Shown here one piece after another: positions 25,389 through 32,346 of a stretch of 64,000 nucleotides of DNA. Made by a program: the position numbers and the translations under genes. The DNA comes from Myxococcota bacterium (GTDB taxonomy: Bacteria > Myxococcota_A > SURF-8). The stretch lies in assembly GCA_965140415.1 (NCBI GenBank), contig OZ223209.1, forward strand, positions 3,680,001 through 3,744,000, read 5' to 3'. How positions within the stretch are numbered: position 1 is the first letter of the stretch; the number at the start of each line of letters is the position of its first letter. A model generated the notes under the pieces. The model worked only from the letters and a program-made list of their open reading frames with translations, was not told the DNA's origin and did not search any database.

Positions 25389-27053
25389 ATGCAAAAGCGC
25401 TGGTTACTTGTACTCATGCTGCTCGTGCTCGGCTCAATGCTTCTCGCCACCGGTTGTGATGACGACAGCGATGAGACGGACGGCGACACGACGATGGACG
25501 GAGACACCAACACGGGAGATGGAGATGTGGTCCTTCCCGATGGCGATGTCAACACCGATTGCTTCGGTCTCTGCATGGCCAAAGATGGTTACGTCTGCGA
25601 TGTAGACACCCAAACCTGTGTGCGTCCTTCCTGCACACCCTGTGATCCGGAAAACGCATTGTTCTACTGCGGCGAAGGCGGCGAATGCAAAGAATTCACC
25701 GTGACCTTCTCCGACGAAGAATACAACTACACGGCCTCCTTCTGCACGAAGGACTGCACCGGCGATAGCGATTGCGATCAGGGCTTTGCCTGCACCGAAG
25801 GCAAATGCGCTCCCACATTCGTGTGTGAAGTTACCCTGCCGCCTTCCGCTCCGGGTGGCCCCTGCGAATTCGGTCCGGTCTGGCCGGGTCGTACCTGTGC
25901 GCTGGGTGGCAGCTGCGTCGGCAACGATACCACCTCGCTTAGTTGCACCGACAATGACGATTGCGCCGGTAGCATGGACAACGGCTATTGCAACAACGGA
26001 ATTTGCGGCTTCAGCCTCTGCGTGCTACCCTGCAACTTCGACGGCTCCTGCCCGCAAATCGACGGATTGCCCGAAATGAACTCGGACATCATCTCCGGTA
26101 GCTGCTACTGCGGTTCCTGCCCCAGCTTCACTCCTAAGGGCGATGGCCAACTGGGCGATGTCTGCAATCCCAACTGCACCGATCCGATCGACACCTATTG
26201 TGCCGAAGGCAACTATTGCTTGGGTCTGACCTACAATGGCTCTTGCACCACCGACGCCGACTGCTCCGAAGCCAACGGCTTCGATCCAGGCGCCTACTGC
26301 AATAGCGATAATGGCTGTGCCCTGTCGATCTGCACCTATGTCGCCAATTCTCCGGAAGAATGCCCGGCAGGCAGCAACCCCTTCTTCAGCCAGGACGGAA
26401 CCTACTACTGCTCCACGCCGCCTTACGCGGACGCCTCCGGTAGCGCCACCATCGGCGAGGCCTGCACTCCCGGAACCGAAACAGAGAAGTGGGGAACCGC
26501 TGATTATTGCAAACCGGGTCTGCTGTGCATCGAAAACAACTCGATGAGCGTTGCTTGCACCACCACCGCGGACTGCTCCGAAGCTGTCTTCGGTCCGAAC
26601 CGCTACTGCAACGAAGGCTCCTGCACGGCGACGGTTTGTGGCCAGCGCTGTAGCCAGGAATTCGATGAAAACGGTCGTCCGTTGACCGCTCCTTACTGCG
26701 CAACCGATGGCACCTTGAAAGTCGGCTTCGCTCCGATCGGCTACTGCTACTGCACGTATCCGCCCTATGGCGAACCGGAAACCATCGCCGACTGCACCGG
26801 CACCTGCGATTCTTCGGTAACCTTCCCGATCTGCTTCGGCGACAAGATCTGCGCCTGTGAAGGCGGCAATTACACCGCGAAGGACTGCGTCTACGAATGT
26901 GCGCAGCAGGGTAAAAACTACGTGGAATGCGACCGTGACAGCTTCGGCTTCAACACCTGCATCTGCGAAGAACCTGTCGTCCCAACCGATGGCGATGAGC
27001 CTGCTGATGGTGATAAACCTGCCGATGGTGACAATGTAATCATCTGGCCCTAA
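25389..27053 (+). CDS. Very Cys-rich surface lipoprotein with internal repeats and DGD linkers
   Basis: RBS AAGGAGG; lipobox ATGC; three internal repeats (G..C...C..G..C...C....DC....YCN...C...C); strong C-ending codon bias. Confidence 0.85.
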   Translation: MQKRWLLVLMLLVLGSMLLATGCDDDSDETDGDTTMDGDTNTGDGDVVLPDGDVNTDCFGLCMAKDGYVCDVDTQTCVRPSCTPCDPENALFYCGEGGECKEFTVTFSDEEYNYTASFCTKDCTGDSDCDQGFACTEGKCAPTFVCEVTLPPSAPGGPCEFGPVWPGRTCALGGSCVGNDTTSLSCTDNDDCAGSMDNGYCNNGICGFSLCVLPCNFDGSCPQIDGLPEMNSDIISGSCYCGSCPSFTPKGDGQLGDVCNPNCTDPIDTYCAEGNYCLGLTYNGSCTTDADCSEANGFDPGAYCNSDNGCALSICTYVANSPEECPAGSNPFFSQDGTYYCSTPPYADASGSATIGEACTPGTETEKWGTADYCKPGLLCIENNSMSVACTTTADCSEAVFGPNRYCNEGSCTATVCGQRCSQEFDENGRPLTAPYCATDGTLKVGFAPIGYCYCTYPPYGEPETIADCTGTCDSSVTFPICFGDKICACEGGNYTAKDCVYECAQQGKNYVECDRDSFGFNTCICEEPVVPTDGDEPADGDKPADGDNVIIWP

Positions 27054-28375: not shown

Positions 28376-28978
28376 ATGACAAACCTGGGCAAGTCAACAT
28401 TTTCGAAACTATTAAACCTCACGTTGAACGTGGTATGGTATTACCTGTTACTCGTAACCGTATTAAGCATCGGCTTGTTTTTCGGAGTGCTCATTTTCGG
28501 AGATTCCGTACGAACCTTCTTGCTCAATTTCCAGCAGTTCCCGGAAAACGCCCTGCTCTTTCACACTTCCGGTGTAGCTTTAATCGTCCAAGATCAACCT
28601 ATCGAGCCGATCCGAAACCAGATCTATCTATTTTCACTCTCCATTGCAACGCTCTACAACATCATGCGCCTGCTGGTGATCTTCGAAATTCGGAAAGTGC
28701 TGAGCACCTCGTTACGCATCGATCCATTCGTAATGGAGAACGTAAAACGAATTCGTATCATCGGCTTGATCTATCTAATTGCACCGCAGATCAACAACTT
28801 GATCATGTATCTAAGCGGACTGATGCTCAAGGACTATGTCCGTGTTGAAAATGGCACCGCTTTTCCCTTCTTCTACGCCGATTACAACAGTTTGTTTATC
28901 GGTTTAGTGATTTTACTGCTGGCGGAAGCCTTCCGAAAGGGAGCGGCGATGAAAGCAGAACAAGACCTGACGATCTGA
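28376..28978 (+). CDS. DUF2975-family membrane protein
   Basis: PF..ENVKRIRIIG and C-terminal LAEAFRKG..MKAEQDLTI. Confidence 0.9.
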   Translation: MTNLGKSTFSKLLNLTLNVVWYYLLLVTVLSIGLFFGVLIFGDSVRTFLLNFQQFPENALLFHTSGVALIVQDQPIEPIRNQIYLFSLSIATLYNIMRLLVIFEIRKVLSTSLRIDPFVMENVKRIRIIGLIYLIAPQINNLIMYLSGLMLKDYVRVENGTAFPFFYADYNSLFIGLVILLLAEAFRKGAAMKAEQDLTI

Positions 28979-28994
28979 GCGAACGGGAGATGTG

Positions 28995-29222
28995 ATGGCG
29001 ATCAATGTCCGCCTGGCAGTACTGATGGCAGAAAAACGGATTCACCTTTATGATCTTGCCGAACGCGTAGGAATCACACAGGCGAATTTATCCATTCTGA
29101 AAAACAACAAAGCACGAGCGATTCGTTTTTCAACCTTGAACCTGCTCTGCAAAGAGTTGAATTGTCAACCCGGAGATTTAATTGAATTCATCCCGGAAGA
29201 TGATGAAGAAGGTGCAATTTAG
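28995..29222 (+). CDS. XRE/Cro-family HTH regulator (YozG-like)
   Basis: LAERVGITQANLSILKNNKARAIRFSTL..LC..L.CQPGDL. Confidence 0.92.
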   Translation: MAINVRLAVLMAEKRIHLYDLAERVGITQANLSILKNNKARAIRFSTLNLLCKELNCQPGDLIEFIPEDDEEGAI

Positions 29223-29347: not shown

Positions 29348-29875
29348 ATGCCCGGAAAAACAATGCTCATGATCGCAGCGTTGATGCTTCTTTTCTCCCA
29401 GACTCTCTGGGCGAACGAAACACCGGCATCTTCGGATACAATTGAAGATAAAGACCAGGCTGGTTCCAACGAGCAGATTGAGCCACCCACTGCTGATACC
29501 GTTGAAGAGCAAACGGAATCGGTAGCAACCTCGGAAGAAGAAGCCGCCACGGAAGAAAGCGACAAAGCCACCACTGAAGAGGATGAAGTCTCGGAAGAGG
29601 AAGCCAACGCAACCGAAGAAGAACAGGATGAAGAGGAAGTCGCAGAAGAAGAGGAAGAAGAGAGCAGCGAAAGCGACTCTGCCGCCTCTACCGTAAAAAC
29701 GCCTCCACCTCCTCCCACGATCAATAACCATACGAATCAGGCACAGTTCCGGCAACAGATCAATTCAACTTATACACCCGTTCCAACGCCGATTCCGACA
29801 CCGGTCCACAACCCGATCAGCACCCCGGTTCCGACTCCGCTCTTCAGGCCGAACGCACCGCGAGGCGTTAACTAG
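29348..29875 (+). CDS. Exported low-complexity protein (Glu-rich, then Pro/Thr-rich)
   Basis: RBS AGGAGG; signal LWA-N; poly-Glu region; PVPTPIPTP tail. Confidence 0.7.
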   Translation: MPGKTMLMIAALMLLFSQTLWANETPASSDTIEDKDQAGSNEQIEPPTADTVEEQTESVATSEEEAATEESDKATTEEDEVSEEEANATEEEQDEEEVAEEEEEESSESDSAASTVKTPPPPPTINNHTNQAQFRQQINSTYTPVPTPIPTPVHNPISTPVPTPLFRPNAPRGVN

Positions 29876-29997: not shown

Positions 29998-30025
29998 TTG
30001 ACACACGCCATCATTCGTGTATCAT
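29998..30025 (+). promoter_or_regulatory. sigma70-type promoter of the radical SAM locus
   Basis: TTGACA-N16-TATCAT. Confidence 0.5.
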
Positions 30026-30153: not shown

Positions 30154-31284
30154 ATGAAACTCGTTCTTCATCTTACAAAAGATTGTAACCTGCGCTGTAT
30201 CTACTGTTATGCGCCTTCAAAAACAGATACGACGATGAGTGTTGAAACCGCAAAAAAAGGCATCGACCTTATCGTAGGACTCAGCCCATCGTCTGCATGT
30301 ATTTCGTATTTCGGCGGAGAACCTCTGTTGAAATTCGACATGATTAAGGAATTGACGGAATATGCATTGGAACTGGGAGAAAAGAAGGACAAACGCATCA
30401 GTTTTCGCATGTCTACCAATGGCCTACTGTTCACAGAGGAAATTCTTTCGTTCTGCCGCGATCACAACATTCTGTTCGCACTTTCCATGGATGGAAATCG
30501 CGACATCCAGGATCGGCAGCGCATCTTTCCAGGTGGAGGCGGAAGCTTTGATGCCTTGAACTCCAAACTGGACATGATCCTGCATTACAACCCGCGAACC
30601 GTGGTCGCCAGTGTAATCACCCCCTGCGCTATTCCTCATTTAGCAGATTCCATGGAATTCCTATGGGAGCGAGGAATACGCTTTATCGCTCATAATCCCG
30701 ATTACACCTACCCAACGTGGATGCCATCTCATTTGAATGAGCTTGAAATCCAATACCGCCGAATGGCCGACTTCTACGTGGAAAAAACTCAGCTTGGCGC
30801 GCATTTTATCATGAGCGTATTCGATGAAAAACTGAAAACGCTGATGCATAAACCTATCGAATTGGGAGGCCAGTGCAATTTCGGAGCACAGAAAGTTTCC
30901 GTCGCGCCGGATGGCCGCCTGTTTCCCTGCGTTCGATTCGTTTCTGACCGAGAAGACGCTAAGCCGTTTTGCATCGGTGATGTCGATACAGGTTTTTCCA
31001 CTCAACGCGAGAAGTTGATCGCTTTAAACAAAAGCGGTCGAACGAACTGCGGCGACTGTGAACACCTAGGGCGTTGCGGCAGTCATTGCGGGTGCAGAAA
31101 CTGGGCACAGACTGGCAGCATTACCGAATCCGGCGCATTGTTGTGCGCACACGAGCGCATGCTGATTCCCATTGCGGATGAAATCGGCAATTTCCTATGG
31201 GACAGTAAAAATCAGACATTCATGAGAAAGCATTACAAACTGGATAAACACTTTCAAGGCATACCCGAGTATGACTTCGATTGA
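30154..31284 (+). CDS. Radical SAM/SPASM-domain protein (peptide/protein maturase type)
   Basis: CNLRCIYC, FGGEPLL, STNG, SMDG; SPASM CNFG...DGRLFPC...CGDC...CGSHCGC...C. Confidence 0.92.
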   Translation: MKLVLHLTKDCNLRCIYCYAPSKTDTTMSVETAKKGIDLIVGLSPSSACISYFGGEPLLKFDMIKELTEYALELGEKKDKRISFRMSTNGLLFTEEILSFCRDHNILFALSMDGNRDIQDRQRIFPGGGGSFDALNSKLDMILHYNPRTVVASVITPCAIPHLADSMEFLWERGIRFIAHNPDYTYPTWMPSHLNELEIQYRRMADFYVEKTQLGAHFIMSVFDEKLKTLMHKPIELGGQCNFGAQKVSVAPDGRLFPCVRFVSDREDAKPFCIGDVDTGFSTQREKLIALNKSGRTNCGDCEHLGRCGSHCGCRNWAQTGSITESGALLCAHERMLIPIADEIGNFLWDSKNQTFMRKHYKLDKHFQGIPEYDFD

Positions 31285-31350
31285 AAACAGGTAAAGCAGA
31301 ATAGTAAAAAGGCAACACATCTTCCCTTAAGAACAGAAAGGATACCGAAT

Positions 31351-31953
31351 ATGAAAGCATCCCTCTTCAACGTCGAGCCGGTTCGATGCTACAAAGGCGC
31401 TCGCTACGGCTTAAAGGCGGCCAACCGTTATGTGGGGCTTGCAACCTGGCTGTTTTTCCGTTTTCCAAAAGAGCTGGTGCGCGGGTCTGTTCTTTTGTTG
31501 CTTGCAGGCGCGCTTACCTTTGGAACACAAGGTTGCACCGATAATGATTCAGGCGATAGAGATTACATTACAGATGGAGATTCATACGATCCATATGATG
31601 ACAACCTCTGGGGGGGAGATGCAGGATATACTTCAGAAGATGACTTGGATGGAGATTATAATAATAACATGATAATTGGGGATGCTGATTATGTCCCGGA
31701 TGAAGATCAGATCGAACCCGATTACGACATGATGATGGGCGATGGTGATTACGTCCCGGATGAAGATCTCCTGCCGCCTTCCGATCAAGATCAGGAATAC
31801 GATAGCGACCTTGTTTCAGGCGATCAGGATGGCGAAATCGAACCGGATGCGGAAATTGACATCGATTTCCACGAGAACCTGTTTCTCGGTGACGGAGACG
31901 ATCTCCGAAGCAAGGACATGGTTTCTCCATCCAAAAACGATAAAAAGAACTAA
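31351..31953 (+). CDS. Acidic repeat-containing lipoprotein, putative radical SAM substrate
   Basis: N-terminal extension FNVEPVRCYKGARYG, hydrophobic stretch ending TQGC, then repeated hydrophobic-x-GD motifs. Confidence 0.7.
   Translation: MKASLFNVEPVRCYKGARYGLKAANRYVGLATWLFFRFPKELVRGSVLLLLAGALTFGTQGCTDNDSGDRDYITDGDSYDPYDDNLWGGDAGYTSEDDLDGDYNNNMIIGDADYVPDEDQIEPDYDMMMGDGDYVPDEDLLPPSDQDQEYDSDLVSGDQDGEIEPDAEIDIDFHENLFLGDGDDLRSKDMVSPSKNDKKN
31681..31768 (+). repeat. 28-nt near-identical direct repeat, 60-nt period
   Basis: gatgctgattatgtcccggatgaagatc and gatggtgattacgtcccggatgaagatc (D[A/G]DYVPDED twice). Confidence 0.85.
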
Positions 31954-31962
31954 AGGGTCCTC

Positions 31963-32346
31963 ATGCGGCAGGTACAGGTAACAAATCCATCTTTTCCCGA
32001 AACCGCGTTCAATGAGCCGCTGCCACTGGATTCCGAAACGATCTGGCAGGTGGTATGCGGAGACACGGACCACTGGCGCTGCGGATTCTACTCACCTCTG
32101 GTGAGTTTCACTGAGGACATCTCGGAGTTGGAGAAGCACGACTGCCCGGAGTTGTTCCTGCTTGTGGAAGGAAACGTAAGCCTGCTATTGGCAGATGAAT
32201 CCGGCGAGCGAATACAGAAATTACAACCGCTTCAACCGGTGCTCGTCACCTGCCGACATGCAGGCTTTTGCCCGGATGGTCCGCACACCGGTCGTTGCAT
32301 CGTGATCGAGCGGGATGCCTTTACGACCACTTACAGCAAACGCTGA
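31963..32346 (+). CDS. Small cupin-fold protein
   Basis: LEKHDCPELFLLVEG...RHAGF metal-ligand spacing; starts 9 nt after the previous stop. Confidence 0.6.
   Translation: MRQVQVTNPSFPETAFNEPLPLDSETIWQVVCGDTDHWRCGFYSPLVSFTEDISELEKHDCPELFLLVEGNVSLLLADESGERIQKLQPLQPVLVTCRHAGFCPDGPHTGRCIVIERDAFTTTYSKR

Follow-up and report, generated by a model that had tools for sequence, protein, structure and literature searches.

The window analysed here is a stretch of 64,000 nucleotides (nt) of the forward strand from a Myxococcota bacterium (contig OZ223209.1 of assembly GCA_965140415.1, positions 3,680,001 to 3,744,000). Near its middle, three consecutive open reading frames (ORFs) encode a radical S-adenosylmethionine (SAM) enzyme with a SPASM domain, a 200-aa protein with a lipoprotein-type signal, and a 127-aa protein of cupin fold. 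Here we refer to the enzyme as the rSAM, and to residues 1-45 of the 200-aa protein as the tag. An initial annotation, made from the letters of the sequence, had proposed that the three ORFs form a system in which the enzyme modifies the lipoprotein, and all three were found at the positions that it gave. The features of the locus, together with its neighbours and the related proteins from other loci that are discussed below, are listed in Table 1.

Table 1. Features of the window, in window positions, and Cys-poor partner proteins at other loci, given as locus:positions
Feature	Position	Strand	Basis or remark
rSAM/SPASM gene, 376 aa, without RRE	30154..31284	+	ORF, Pfam, NCBIfam, PDB alignment
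200-aa tagged pre-lipoprotein ORF	31351..31953	+	ORF; AAAGGA-type ribosome-binding site immediately 5′
Conserved N-terminal tag, putatively cytoplasmic, residues 1-45	31351..31485	+	
Tag core motif F6-G20 (FNVEPVRCYKGARYG)	31366-31410	+	
Signal/h-region (SVLLLLAGALTFGTQG) ending at lipobox-like Cys62 (codon 31534-31536)	31486..31536	+	
Acidic Cys-free mature region, 138 aa, 34% D+E, seven x-GD cores	31537..31953	+	
127-aa cupin-fold ORF	31963..32346	+	Starts 9 nt past the stop of the 200-aa ORF
Promoter-like site TTGACA-16-TATCAT, 11/12	29998..30025	+	~130 nt 5′ of the rSAM start; candidate only
175-aa signal-bearing protein, extremely acidic (long E-rich run), then Pro/Thr-rich	29348-29875	+	
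DUF2975 membrane protein, then 13 nt later a 76-aa HTH_26 (Cro/C1-type) regulator	28376-29222	+	
554-aa lipoprotein: DGD-type acidic linker, then many Cys-rich modules	25389-27053	+	No Pfam/NCBIfam family
Cys-poor partners at other loci	L125:1791-2366; L127:5124-5705; L178:5130-5666; L124 frame 1 near 1900-2450; L137:4476-5921; L144:5156-6151		

The rSAM carries the CX3CX2C motif at C11, C15 and C18 and matched PF04055 with 51.9 bits against a gathering threshold of 29.5, as expected of the radical SAM superfamily. In Pfam, the Radical_SAM and Fer4_12 families were reported, and the SPASM model was not reported at E ≤ 0.01. SPASM domains follow the form CX9-15GX4C ... CX2CX5CX3C ... C, with two auxiliary clusters. 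This arrangement is present in the rSAM (C241-x12-G-x4-C259, C299-x2-C302-x5-C308-x3-C312 and C331) in alignment with CteB, the SCIFF maturase. Its C-terminal part holds eight conserved cysteines (C241, C259, C299, C302, C308, C312, C314 and C331), which are invariant in 8/8 aligned homologues; Cys314 is an extra conserved residue and a candidate fourth ligand of auxiliary cluster I. CteB (5wgg) is also the closest PDB match (E 3.5e-31), and the alignment begins at CteB residue 99, past the N-terminal domain of that enzyme. Since the alignment begins there and only 5 in-frame codons lie 5′ of the rSAM start (open frame of 381 aa), the enzyme has no RRE (recognition element of peptides that are synthesized by ribosomes and modified post-translationally, RiPPs) or PqqD extension at its N terminus, as had been noticed at the outset.

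Comparison with NCBIfam gave full-length matches to peptide-modifying SPASM maturases, every one of which was under its cut-off. The PapB family (NF047865) was the best match, with 215.2 bits against a cut-off of 340 over model positions 5-329 of 330, and was followed by the nif11 maturase (168.6 bits, cut-off 518.7), CcpM (157.2 bits, cut-off 500), the CXXX-repeat maturase (156.8 bits, cut-off 350), QhpD (150.2 bits, cut-off 453) and the SCIFF maturase (146.8 bits, cut-off 425). The anaerobic sulfatase-maturating enzyme (anSME, TIGR03942) scored 90.8 bits against a cut-off of 349, and the CrpC-type model TIGR04463 scored 58.5 bits against 525. Judged by its sequence, the rSAM is an intact RRE-less SPASM enzyme from the neighbourhood of the thioether maturases and lies outside every curated family.

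Residues 1-45 of the 200-aa protein, with 9 K/R and 8 aromatic residues, make up the basic/aromatic extension that had been described ahead of the lipoprotein-type signal, and they are followed by LLLLAGALTFGTQG-C62. Lipoboxes obey the rule [LVI][ASTVI][GAS]-C following a hydrophobic h-region; compared with it, the T-Q-G-C62 of the window's protein fits at position -1 and is atypical at position -3. The mature part contains 38 D, 9 E, 13 G, 9 Y and zero Cys. The seven x-GD cores listed by the initial annotation are all in the translation, and the duplication of 60-nt period from which two of them stem is real, with 42 nt at 88% identity and a spacing of 60 (31667-31708 and 31727-31768); Tandem Repeats Finder (minimum score 30) reported nothing on this gene.

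In relatives, the N terminus follows the pattern F.V.PVKRY..ARY.SESGE, then ~10 residues, ACWL, a basic patch, LLLAAGLALG..C and an acidic stretch. In an alignment of 11 sequences (A1) that includes the window's copy, Y14 and Y19 never vary and A17 hardly does; the family hidden Markov model (HMM) gave 99 bits on the window's tag, a score to be read with this inclusion in mind. Searched against 1,835,955,588 cluster representatives, the tag profile found 26 clusters at E ≤ 1e-3 and 15 at E ≤ 1e-10, and all 26 matches begin within the first 6 residues of the protein. The 45-residue N terminus is no annotation artefact, since a paralogous partner in the same genome has the same N terminus. Nothing credible was found in Pfam and NCBIfam at E ≤ 1 for 11 tag proteins, nor in Pfam at E ≤ 0.1 for 10 more, and the best score in a search of the ESM Atlas with residues 1-75 was 0.79, at noise level.

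The tag was detected in 8 of 301 genomes sampled from the phylum, all 8 belonging to the order of the window's genome and none to the 291 genomes outside it. Orthologues of the rSAM (E ≤ 1e-70, 41 genomes) were confined to the same 8 genomes, and two further genomes of the order, G003 and G005 (86% and 79% complete), had neither the tag nor an rSAM orthologue. The gene after the orthologous rSAM starts with the tag in G001 (two in tandem), G002, G004, G006, G008, G009 and G007 (two small ones). Within the window's own genome, a paralogous pair consists of an rSAM with 53% identity and a tagged 467-aa Cys-rich lipoprotein in the same layout. This pair (G000:C1:4184798-4186254; L022, L031) is located ~470 kb from the window and is the more orthodox copy, the branch of its rSAM being shorter than that of the window's. 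The two tandem partners in G001 (L025:9147-11746) are 510 and 329 aa long and follow one rSAM, while those in G007 (L030) are 83 and 230 aa. In G009, the rSAM at L029 (G009:C33:17300-18420) is split in two overlapping frames (residues 1-241 and 236-373) by a frameshift or an assembly error; its downstream tagged partner is intact, and two further tagged proteins are encoded elsewhere in that genome.

Metagenome contigs were scanned with the rSAM alignment A3, by which 80 of 498 confirmed loci were kept, and the clade HMM was then applied to all loci, of which 157 had an rSAM match. At 395 bits or more there were 14 loci, and a tagged ORF lies directly downstream on the same strand in 14/14, the paralogous pair of the window's genome among them; close rSAM homologues do stand next to a protein with the kind of leader that the initial annotation had suggested looking for. 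Between 300 and 394 bits there were nine loci: a tagged ORF is present in L144 and L148, none was found in L129, L134, L136 and L151 (at least 2 kb downstream), and 3 had less than 400 nt downstream. Among the 134 loci below 300 bits, there was one true tagged case, L132, whose rSAM, 55% identical, is cut by the contig end. A regular-expression match in L101 was rejected as a false hit, as it is without the P-[VIL]-[KR] part. A tagged ORF lies downstream even of the frameshifted rSAM of L029 and of the cut rSAM of L132, and tagged proteins also follow rSAMs of only 31-41% identity. An HMM of the core motif, made from the 26 database representatives only, was run on the 80 metagenome loci, translated in six frames into 3980 segments; its six best matches (12.8-25.7 bits) are the ORF right after an rSAM, the next match having 8.2 bits. 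In L124, L148 and L178 the core motif was seen by eye and by regular expression and was undetected by this HMM. A search of genome contigs with the single rSAM returned only distant homologues from Clostridia, Treponema and similar organisms (23-40% identity), none with a true tag protein. In a quick maximum-likelihood tree of the 45 best-scoring of 113 near-full-length rSAMs (the other 68 being left out), 15 of the 16 tag-linked rSAMs fall within one group of 20 rows (SH-aLRT 86), with a support of 100 for the core clade. These sequence data argue that the pairing of tag and rSAM is more than chance.

We favour reading positions 30154-31953 as a two-gene protein-modification module new to the literature, in which a CteB/PapB-like RRE-less SPASM enzyme would act on a tagged pre-lipoprotein, and give this reading a probability of roughly 0.6. 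In the literature covered, which lay outside subscription journals, we found no account of an rSAM whose partner protein is tagged upstream of a lipoprotein signal. We consider it quite likely that the two proteins are truly enzyme and partner, with the tag as the key to their pairing.

Several observations weigh against this reading. No tag protein was detected downstream of the five rSAMs of a sister sub-clade (L128, L129, L130, L134 and L136), four of which have at least 2 kb of downstream sequence and L128 only 178 nt, nor downstream of L151. Four tag proteins in G004, G006 and G009 do not adjoin an rSAM, though these genomes encode one, a picture to be expected of a single enzyme with several substrates. 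The genomes share ancestry and so do not count independently; the co-occurrence numbers, inflated by kinship, show consistency rather than statistics. The tag has no conserved Cys (the window's copy has C13, where most others have K/R), while the nearest characterised relatives of the enzyme make Cys thioethers. Two further points are particular to the window's copy and suggest possible decay: the SESGE segment of its tag is divergent, and the branch of its rSAM is the longest in the clade (0.62 vs 0.22-0.35). With these, and with the loss of the Cys-rich domain that many other partners have, one could argue that the adjacency is fortuitous or that the window's copy is a decaying duplicate without function. 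This seems highly improbable to us, as the adjacency is kept at 31-57% rSAM identity over many loci, both ORFs of the window are intact, the catalytic Cys and the invariant Tyr are retained, and a second acid-only member (P0007) exists elsewhere. On the sequence comparisons, the window's copy is best described as the most diverged member, with a linker-only tail.

What follows the signal differs widely between the partners, and the tag is the only element common to all of them. Cys-rich repeats with 16-49 Cys are present in 17 of the 26 representatives, only an acidic Tyr/Gly/Asp tail in the window's copy and P0007, and almost nothing in the complete 83-aa (L030) and 100-aa (L148) members. The partners of rSAMs with 33-40% identity (L124/L125/L127/L178 and L137/L144) have a different, Cys-poor domain with conserved VF..NGI.L and LDGFN....VGYEY segments, for which Pfam gave no credible match and merely a weak sub-cut-off DUF6922 for L178.

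The acidic tail of the window's copy had been taken by the initial annotation as the part that is modified. However, when the genome was scanned crudely for lipoprotein-like N-termini, 172 of the 366 detected (47%) had at least three GD/DG within the first 40 mature residues, and the usual linker pattern in the lipoproteins of this genome is DGD followed by a hydrophobic residue. The 554-aa lipoprotein encoded at 25389-27053 typifies this genome-wide acidic pattern. Since so many N-termini carry it, we interpret the x-GD region as the lineage-wide lipoprotein linker, without a globular domain, which is the very outcome that the initial annotation had named as speaking against its proposal; the cores are moreover absent in most members of the family. 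The abundant DGD repeats of this lineage should be taken as ordinary linkers. It could still be argued that the tag is a mere leader and that the enzyme modifies the acidic repeats before export, for instance by Asp epimerisation or beta-carbon chemistry, which would yield a modified surface lipoprotein. A tag followed by a variable C terminus does resemble a leader with its core; in the parts of the sources available, CrpA and CrpB share a 47-aa N terminus and diverge in their C-terminal cores (PMC13692751), and PapB-type enzymes abstract hydrogen from Asp or Glu (PMC9413430). We nevertheless consider this explanation improbable, because the x-GD pattern is generic and occurs in those 172 N-termini without an rSAM nearby, the distant tagged partners have no x-GD repeats, and the mature part of the 200-aa protein has no Cys for a thioether. 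Of the first proposal, the recognition part is retained, as a conserved tag tied to the rSAM clade, and the x-GD repeats as modification sites are given up.

The main rival to our reading is a PapB/QhpD-like thioether on Cys, formed either from the lipobox Cys to a downstream acid (C62-T-D-N-D66, a C-X3-D motif), which would block lipidation, or from Cys to Asp/Glu within the Cys-rich repeats. It is suggested by the best NCBIfam matches, which are all thioether-forming maturases (PapB, nif11, CcpM, CXXX-repeat, QhpD and SCIFF), by CteB being the closest solved structure, with whose CX2CX5CX3C the SPASM cysteines of the rSAM align, and by the partners themselves, as [G/A/S]-C stands at the aligned signal end in 23 of the 26 family representatives and 17 of the 26 are Cys-rich. 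Nonetheless, D or E already occupies position C+4 in 35% of the ordinary lipoproteins of the genome, and the share of Cys in CX3[D/E] roughly follows the D+E content, with no clear excess at the lipobox or in the repeats. Three representatives (P0017-P0019) have no lipobox Cys, the Cys-rich domain is missing in the window's copy and in the distant subfamilies, and eight Cys per repeat are compatible with plain disulfides. We therefore regard such a thioether as unlikely.

Returning to the tagged module, the tag is plausibly what the enzyme recognises in its substrate, the pair acting ahead of export. As rSAM enzymes are cytoplasmic and oxygen-sensitive, the rSAM would act on the pre-protein in the cytoplasm, performing its radical chemistry before or during Sec targeting. 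Because it has no RRE, the tag core of ~16 residues would fill the active site, being bound directly in the barrel in a manner that resembles anSME with the sulfatase motif. Modification inside the tag is favoured since the tag is the only universal element of the partners; the likeliest site would be centred on the segment with the invariant Tyr14 and Tyr19, and we put the modified residue within the tag tentatively, at somewhat short of an even chance. Homology points to a thioether. As the tag is without a conserved Cys, a Cys-independent reaction seems as likely, such as a C-C or C-O cross-link to Tyr, epimerisation or desaturation. A predicted complex of the rSAM (A3) and tag residues 1-45 (A1) with three 4Fe-4S clusters and SAM gave discordant runs (0.00, 0.88 and 0.00), and counts neither way.

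The linkage data show partnership and not catalysis on the partner, and the tag adjoins a membrane-spanning segment; a tag protein could accordingly be pictured as tethering or regulating the rSAM at the membrane, where the enzyme would act on another molecule, be it a lipid, a cofactor or another protein. This appears decidedly improbable, as the characterised relatives of the SPASM clade among the NCBIfam matches all act on peptides or proteins, a single rSAM is shared by several tag proteins per genome, as it would be by substrates, and the ectodomain would be left without a role. In a further variant, the tag itself would be the product: the rSAM would modify the extension, signal peptidase II would cut at the lipobox Cys, and a modified peptide derived from the signal peptide would be freed. 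Enterococcal pheromones derive from lipoprotein signal peptides. Such a RiPP, concealed within the signal peptide of a lipoprotein whose ectodomain is dispensable, would explain the members of 83, 100, 200 and 223 aa that have little or nothing beyond a linker; we hold it to be quite improbable. If the favoured module is real, a recognition element 5′ of a lipoprotein signal and an RRE-less enzyme would be a new coupling of radical chemistry to export. The family comprises only 26 clusters and has sharp limits; with two genes and a tag short enough for peptide assays, it could reveal a Tyr-centred or other Cys-independent SPASM reaction. To our knowledge, rSAM/SPASM enzymes that act on whole proteins are few, namely anSME, QhpD and, recently, CrpC.

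The third ORF was modelled with AlphaFold2 (pLDDT 96.6), and the best PDB match of the model was 3d0j at a TMq of 0.72, followed by HppE, 3-hydroxyanthranilate dioxygenase (3-HAO) and canavalin. With 74 PDB matches at E ≤ 0.001, among them HppE, 3-HAO, canavalin and quercetinase, the model has the double-stranded beta-helix of the cupin superfamily; the fold assigned to this ORF at the start, as well as its start 9 nt downstream, is thus borne out. Pfam and NCBIfam gave no match, and the ORF is one of a widely distributed family of hypothetical proteins (213 at E ≤ 0.001). Its homologues include some with the source names 'Myxococcales bacterium' and 'Deltaproteobacteria bacterium'; these names, and Myxococcota as the commonest phylum in the nearest Atlas cluster, tentatively agree with the lineage. 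No terminator-like site was found on the + strand between the three ORFs, and the cupin is probably co-transcribed with the pair in the window. However, the claim that it is part of the system did not hold. The cupin gene is single-copy in 8 of the 10 genomes of the order, including G003 and G005, both without the rSAM-tag pair, and none was detected in G001 and G004, where the pair is present. In all five relatives with both (5/5), a different contig carries it or hundreds of kb separate it from the pair, its surroundings share no other gene of the window, and none of the 17 other loci of the pair carries a homologue. The distribution of these sequences indicates that the cupin is a bystander, outside the conserved module.

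Regarding the surroundings, four promoter-like sites were counted in the region against 3.0 ± 1.6 in shuffled sequences, which is no excess. The DUF2975 and HTH_26 genes look like a separate small two-gene unit just 5′ of the rSAM module. The sole family match of the 175-aa acidic protein was a weak, sub-threshold TraM (20.9 bits vs 172). The other neighbours are a 288-aa ORF without a family and, on the opposite strand, an ABC-F ATPase, a DEAD/DbpA helicase and a PIG-L deacetylase. Among the 11 neighbouring ORFs scanned, four of which match no family, there was none for a sulfatase, a protease, an exporter or a PqqD-like protein, in agreement with the earlier remark that neither a sulfatase nor a protease is adjacent.

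CteB and PapB, the freyrasin ranthipeptide maturase, are the closest sequence relatives of the rSAM over its rSAM and SPASM domains. PapB has its RRE at residues 1-86, according to the available part of PMC12715619, and makes Cys-Asp/Glu thioethers, according to that of PMC9413430. Unlike these two, the window's enzyme is without an RRE, its partner is a signal-bearing protein and not a short Cys-rich peptide, and there is no protease or exporter gene among the neighbours. Instead of an RRE and a short precursor with repeated C-X3-D, which mark the PapB/ranthipeptide systems, the window has a partner with two Cys and one C-X3-D, at C62-D66. As to TIGR04133 and TIGR04134, what is shared is the concept only, namely a radical SAM enzyme with a predicted lipoprotein. 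The window's rSAM was not among the 29 matches of TIGR04133 (cut-off 425) in the genome, in which its paralogue scored 28.4 bits, and TIGR04134 (cut-off 39.8) matched neither the window's partner nor the paralogous one, so the early judgement that the substrate belongs to neither family is upheld.

The anSME is a cytoplasmic, RRE-less SPASM enzyme that acts on a short motif of export-bound sulfatases, and one enzyme can serve several substrates. By analogy, the module would likewise combine an RRE-less SPASM enzyme of similar size with a conserved short motif in an export-bound protein. In contrast to the anSME case, the tag is without C/S-x-P/A-x-R, the motif lies 5′ of the signal peptide and not in the mature protein, and no sulfatase is near; this and the low anSME score speak against the possibility, raised at the outset, that the rSAM is itself a sulfatase maturase. 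CrpC (TIGR04463) of methanogens is an rSAM/SPASM enzyme encoded beside large proteins such as CrpA, which share an N terminus of ~47 aa and diverge in Cys-rich repeats, as the available part of PMC13692751 reports. The window's rSAM differs from it in having no RRE and in its low score with that model, and the window's family includes Cys-free partners; the same part of PMC13692751 mentions neither a signal peptide nor a lipobox for CrpA, whereas the window's partner has a signal. By its gene content and scores the module falls outside the CteB/PapB-type, anSME, CrpC and TIGR04133/TIGR04134 families. In the way it would work, it most resembles anSME with its sulfatases and CrpC with CrpA, and on present sequence comparisons it is a small, sharply defined variant of the theme in which an rSAM enzyme has a protein as its substrate.

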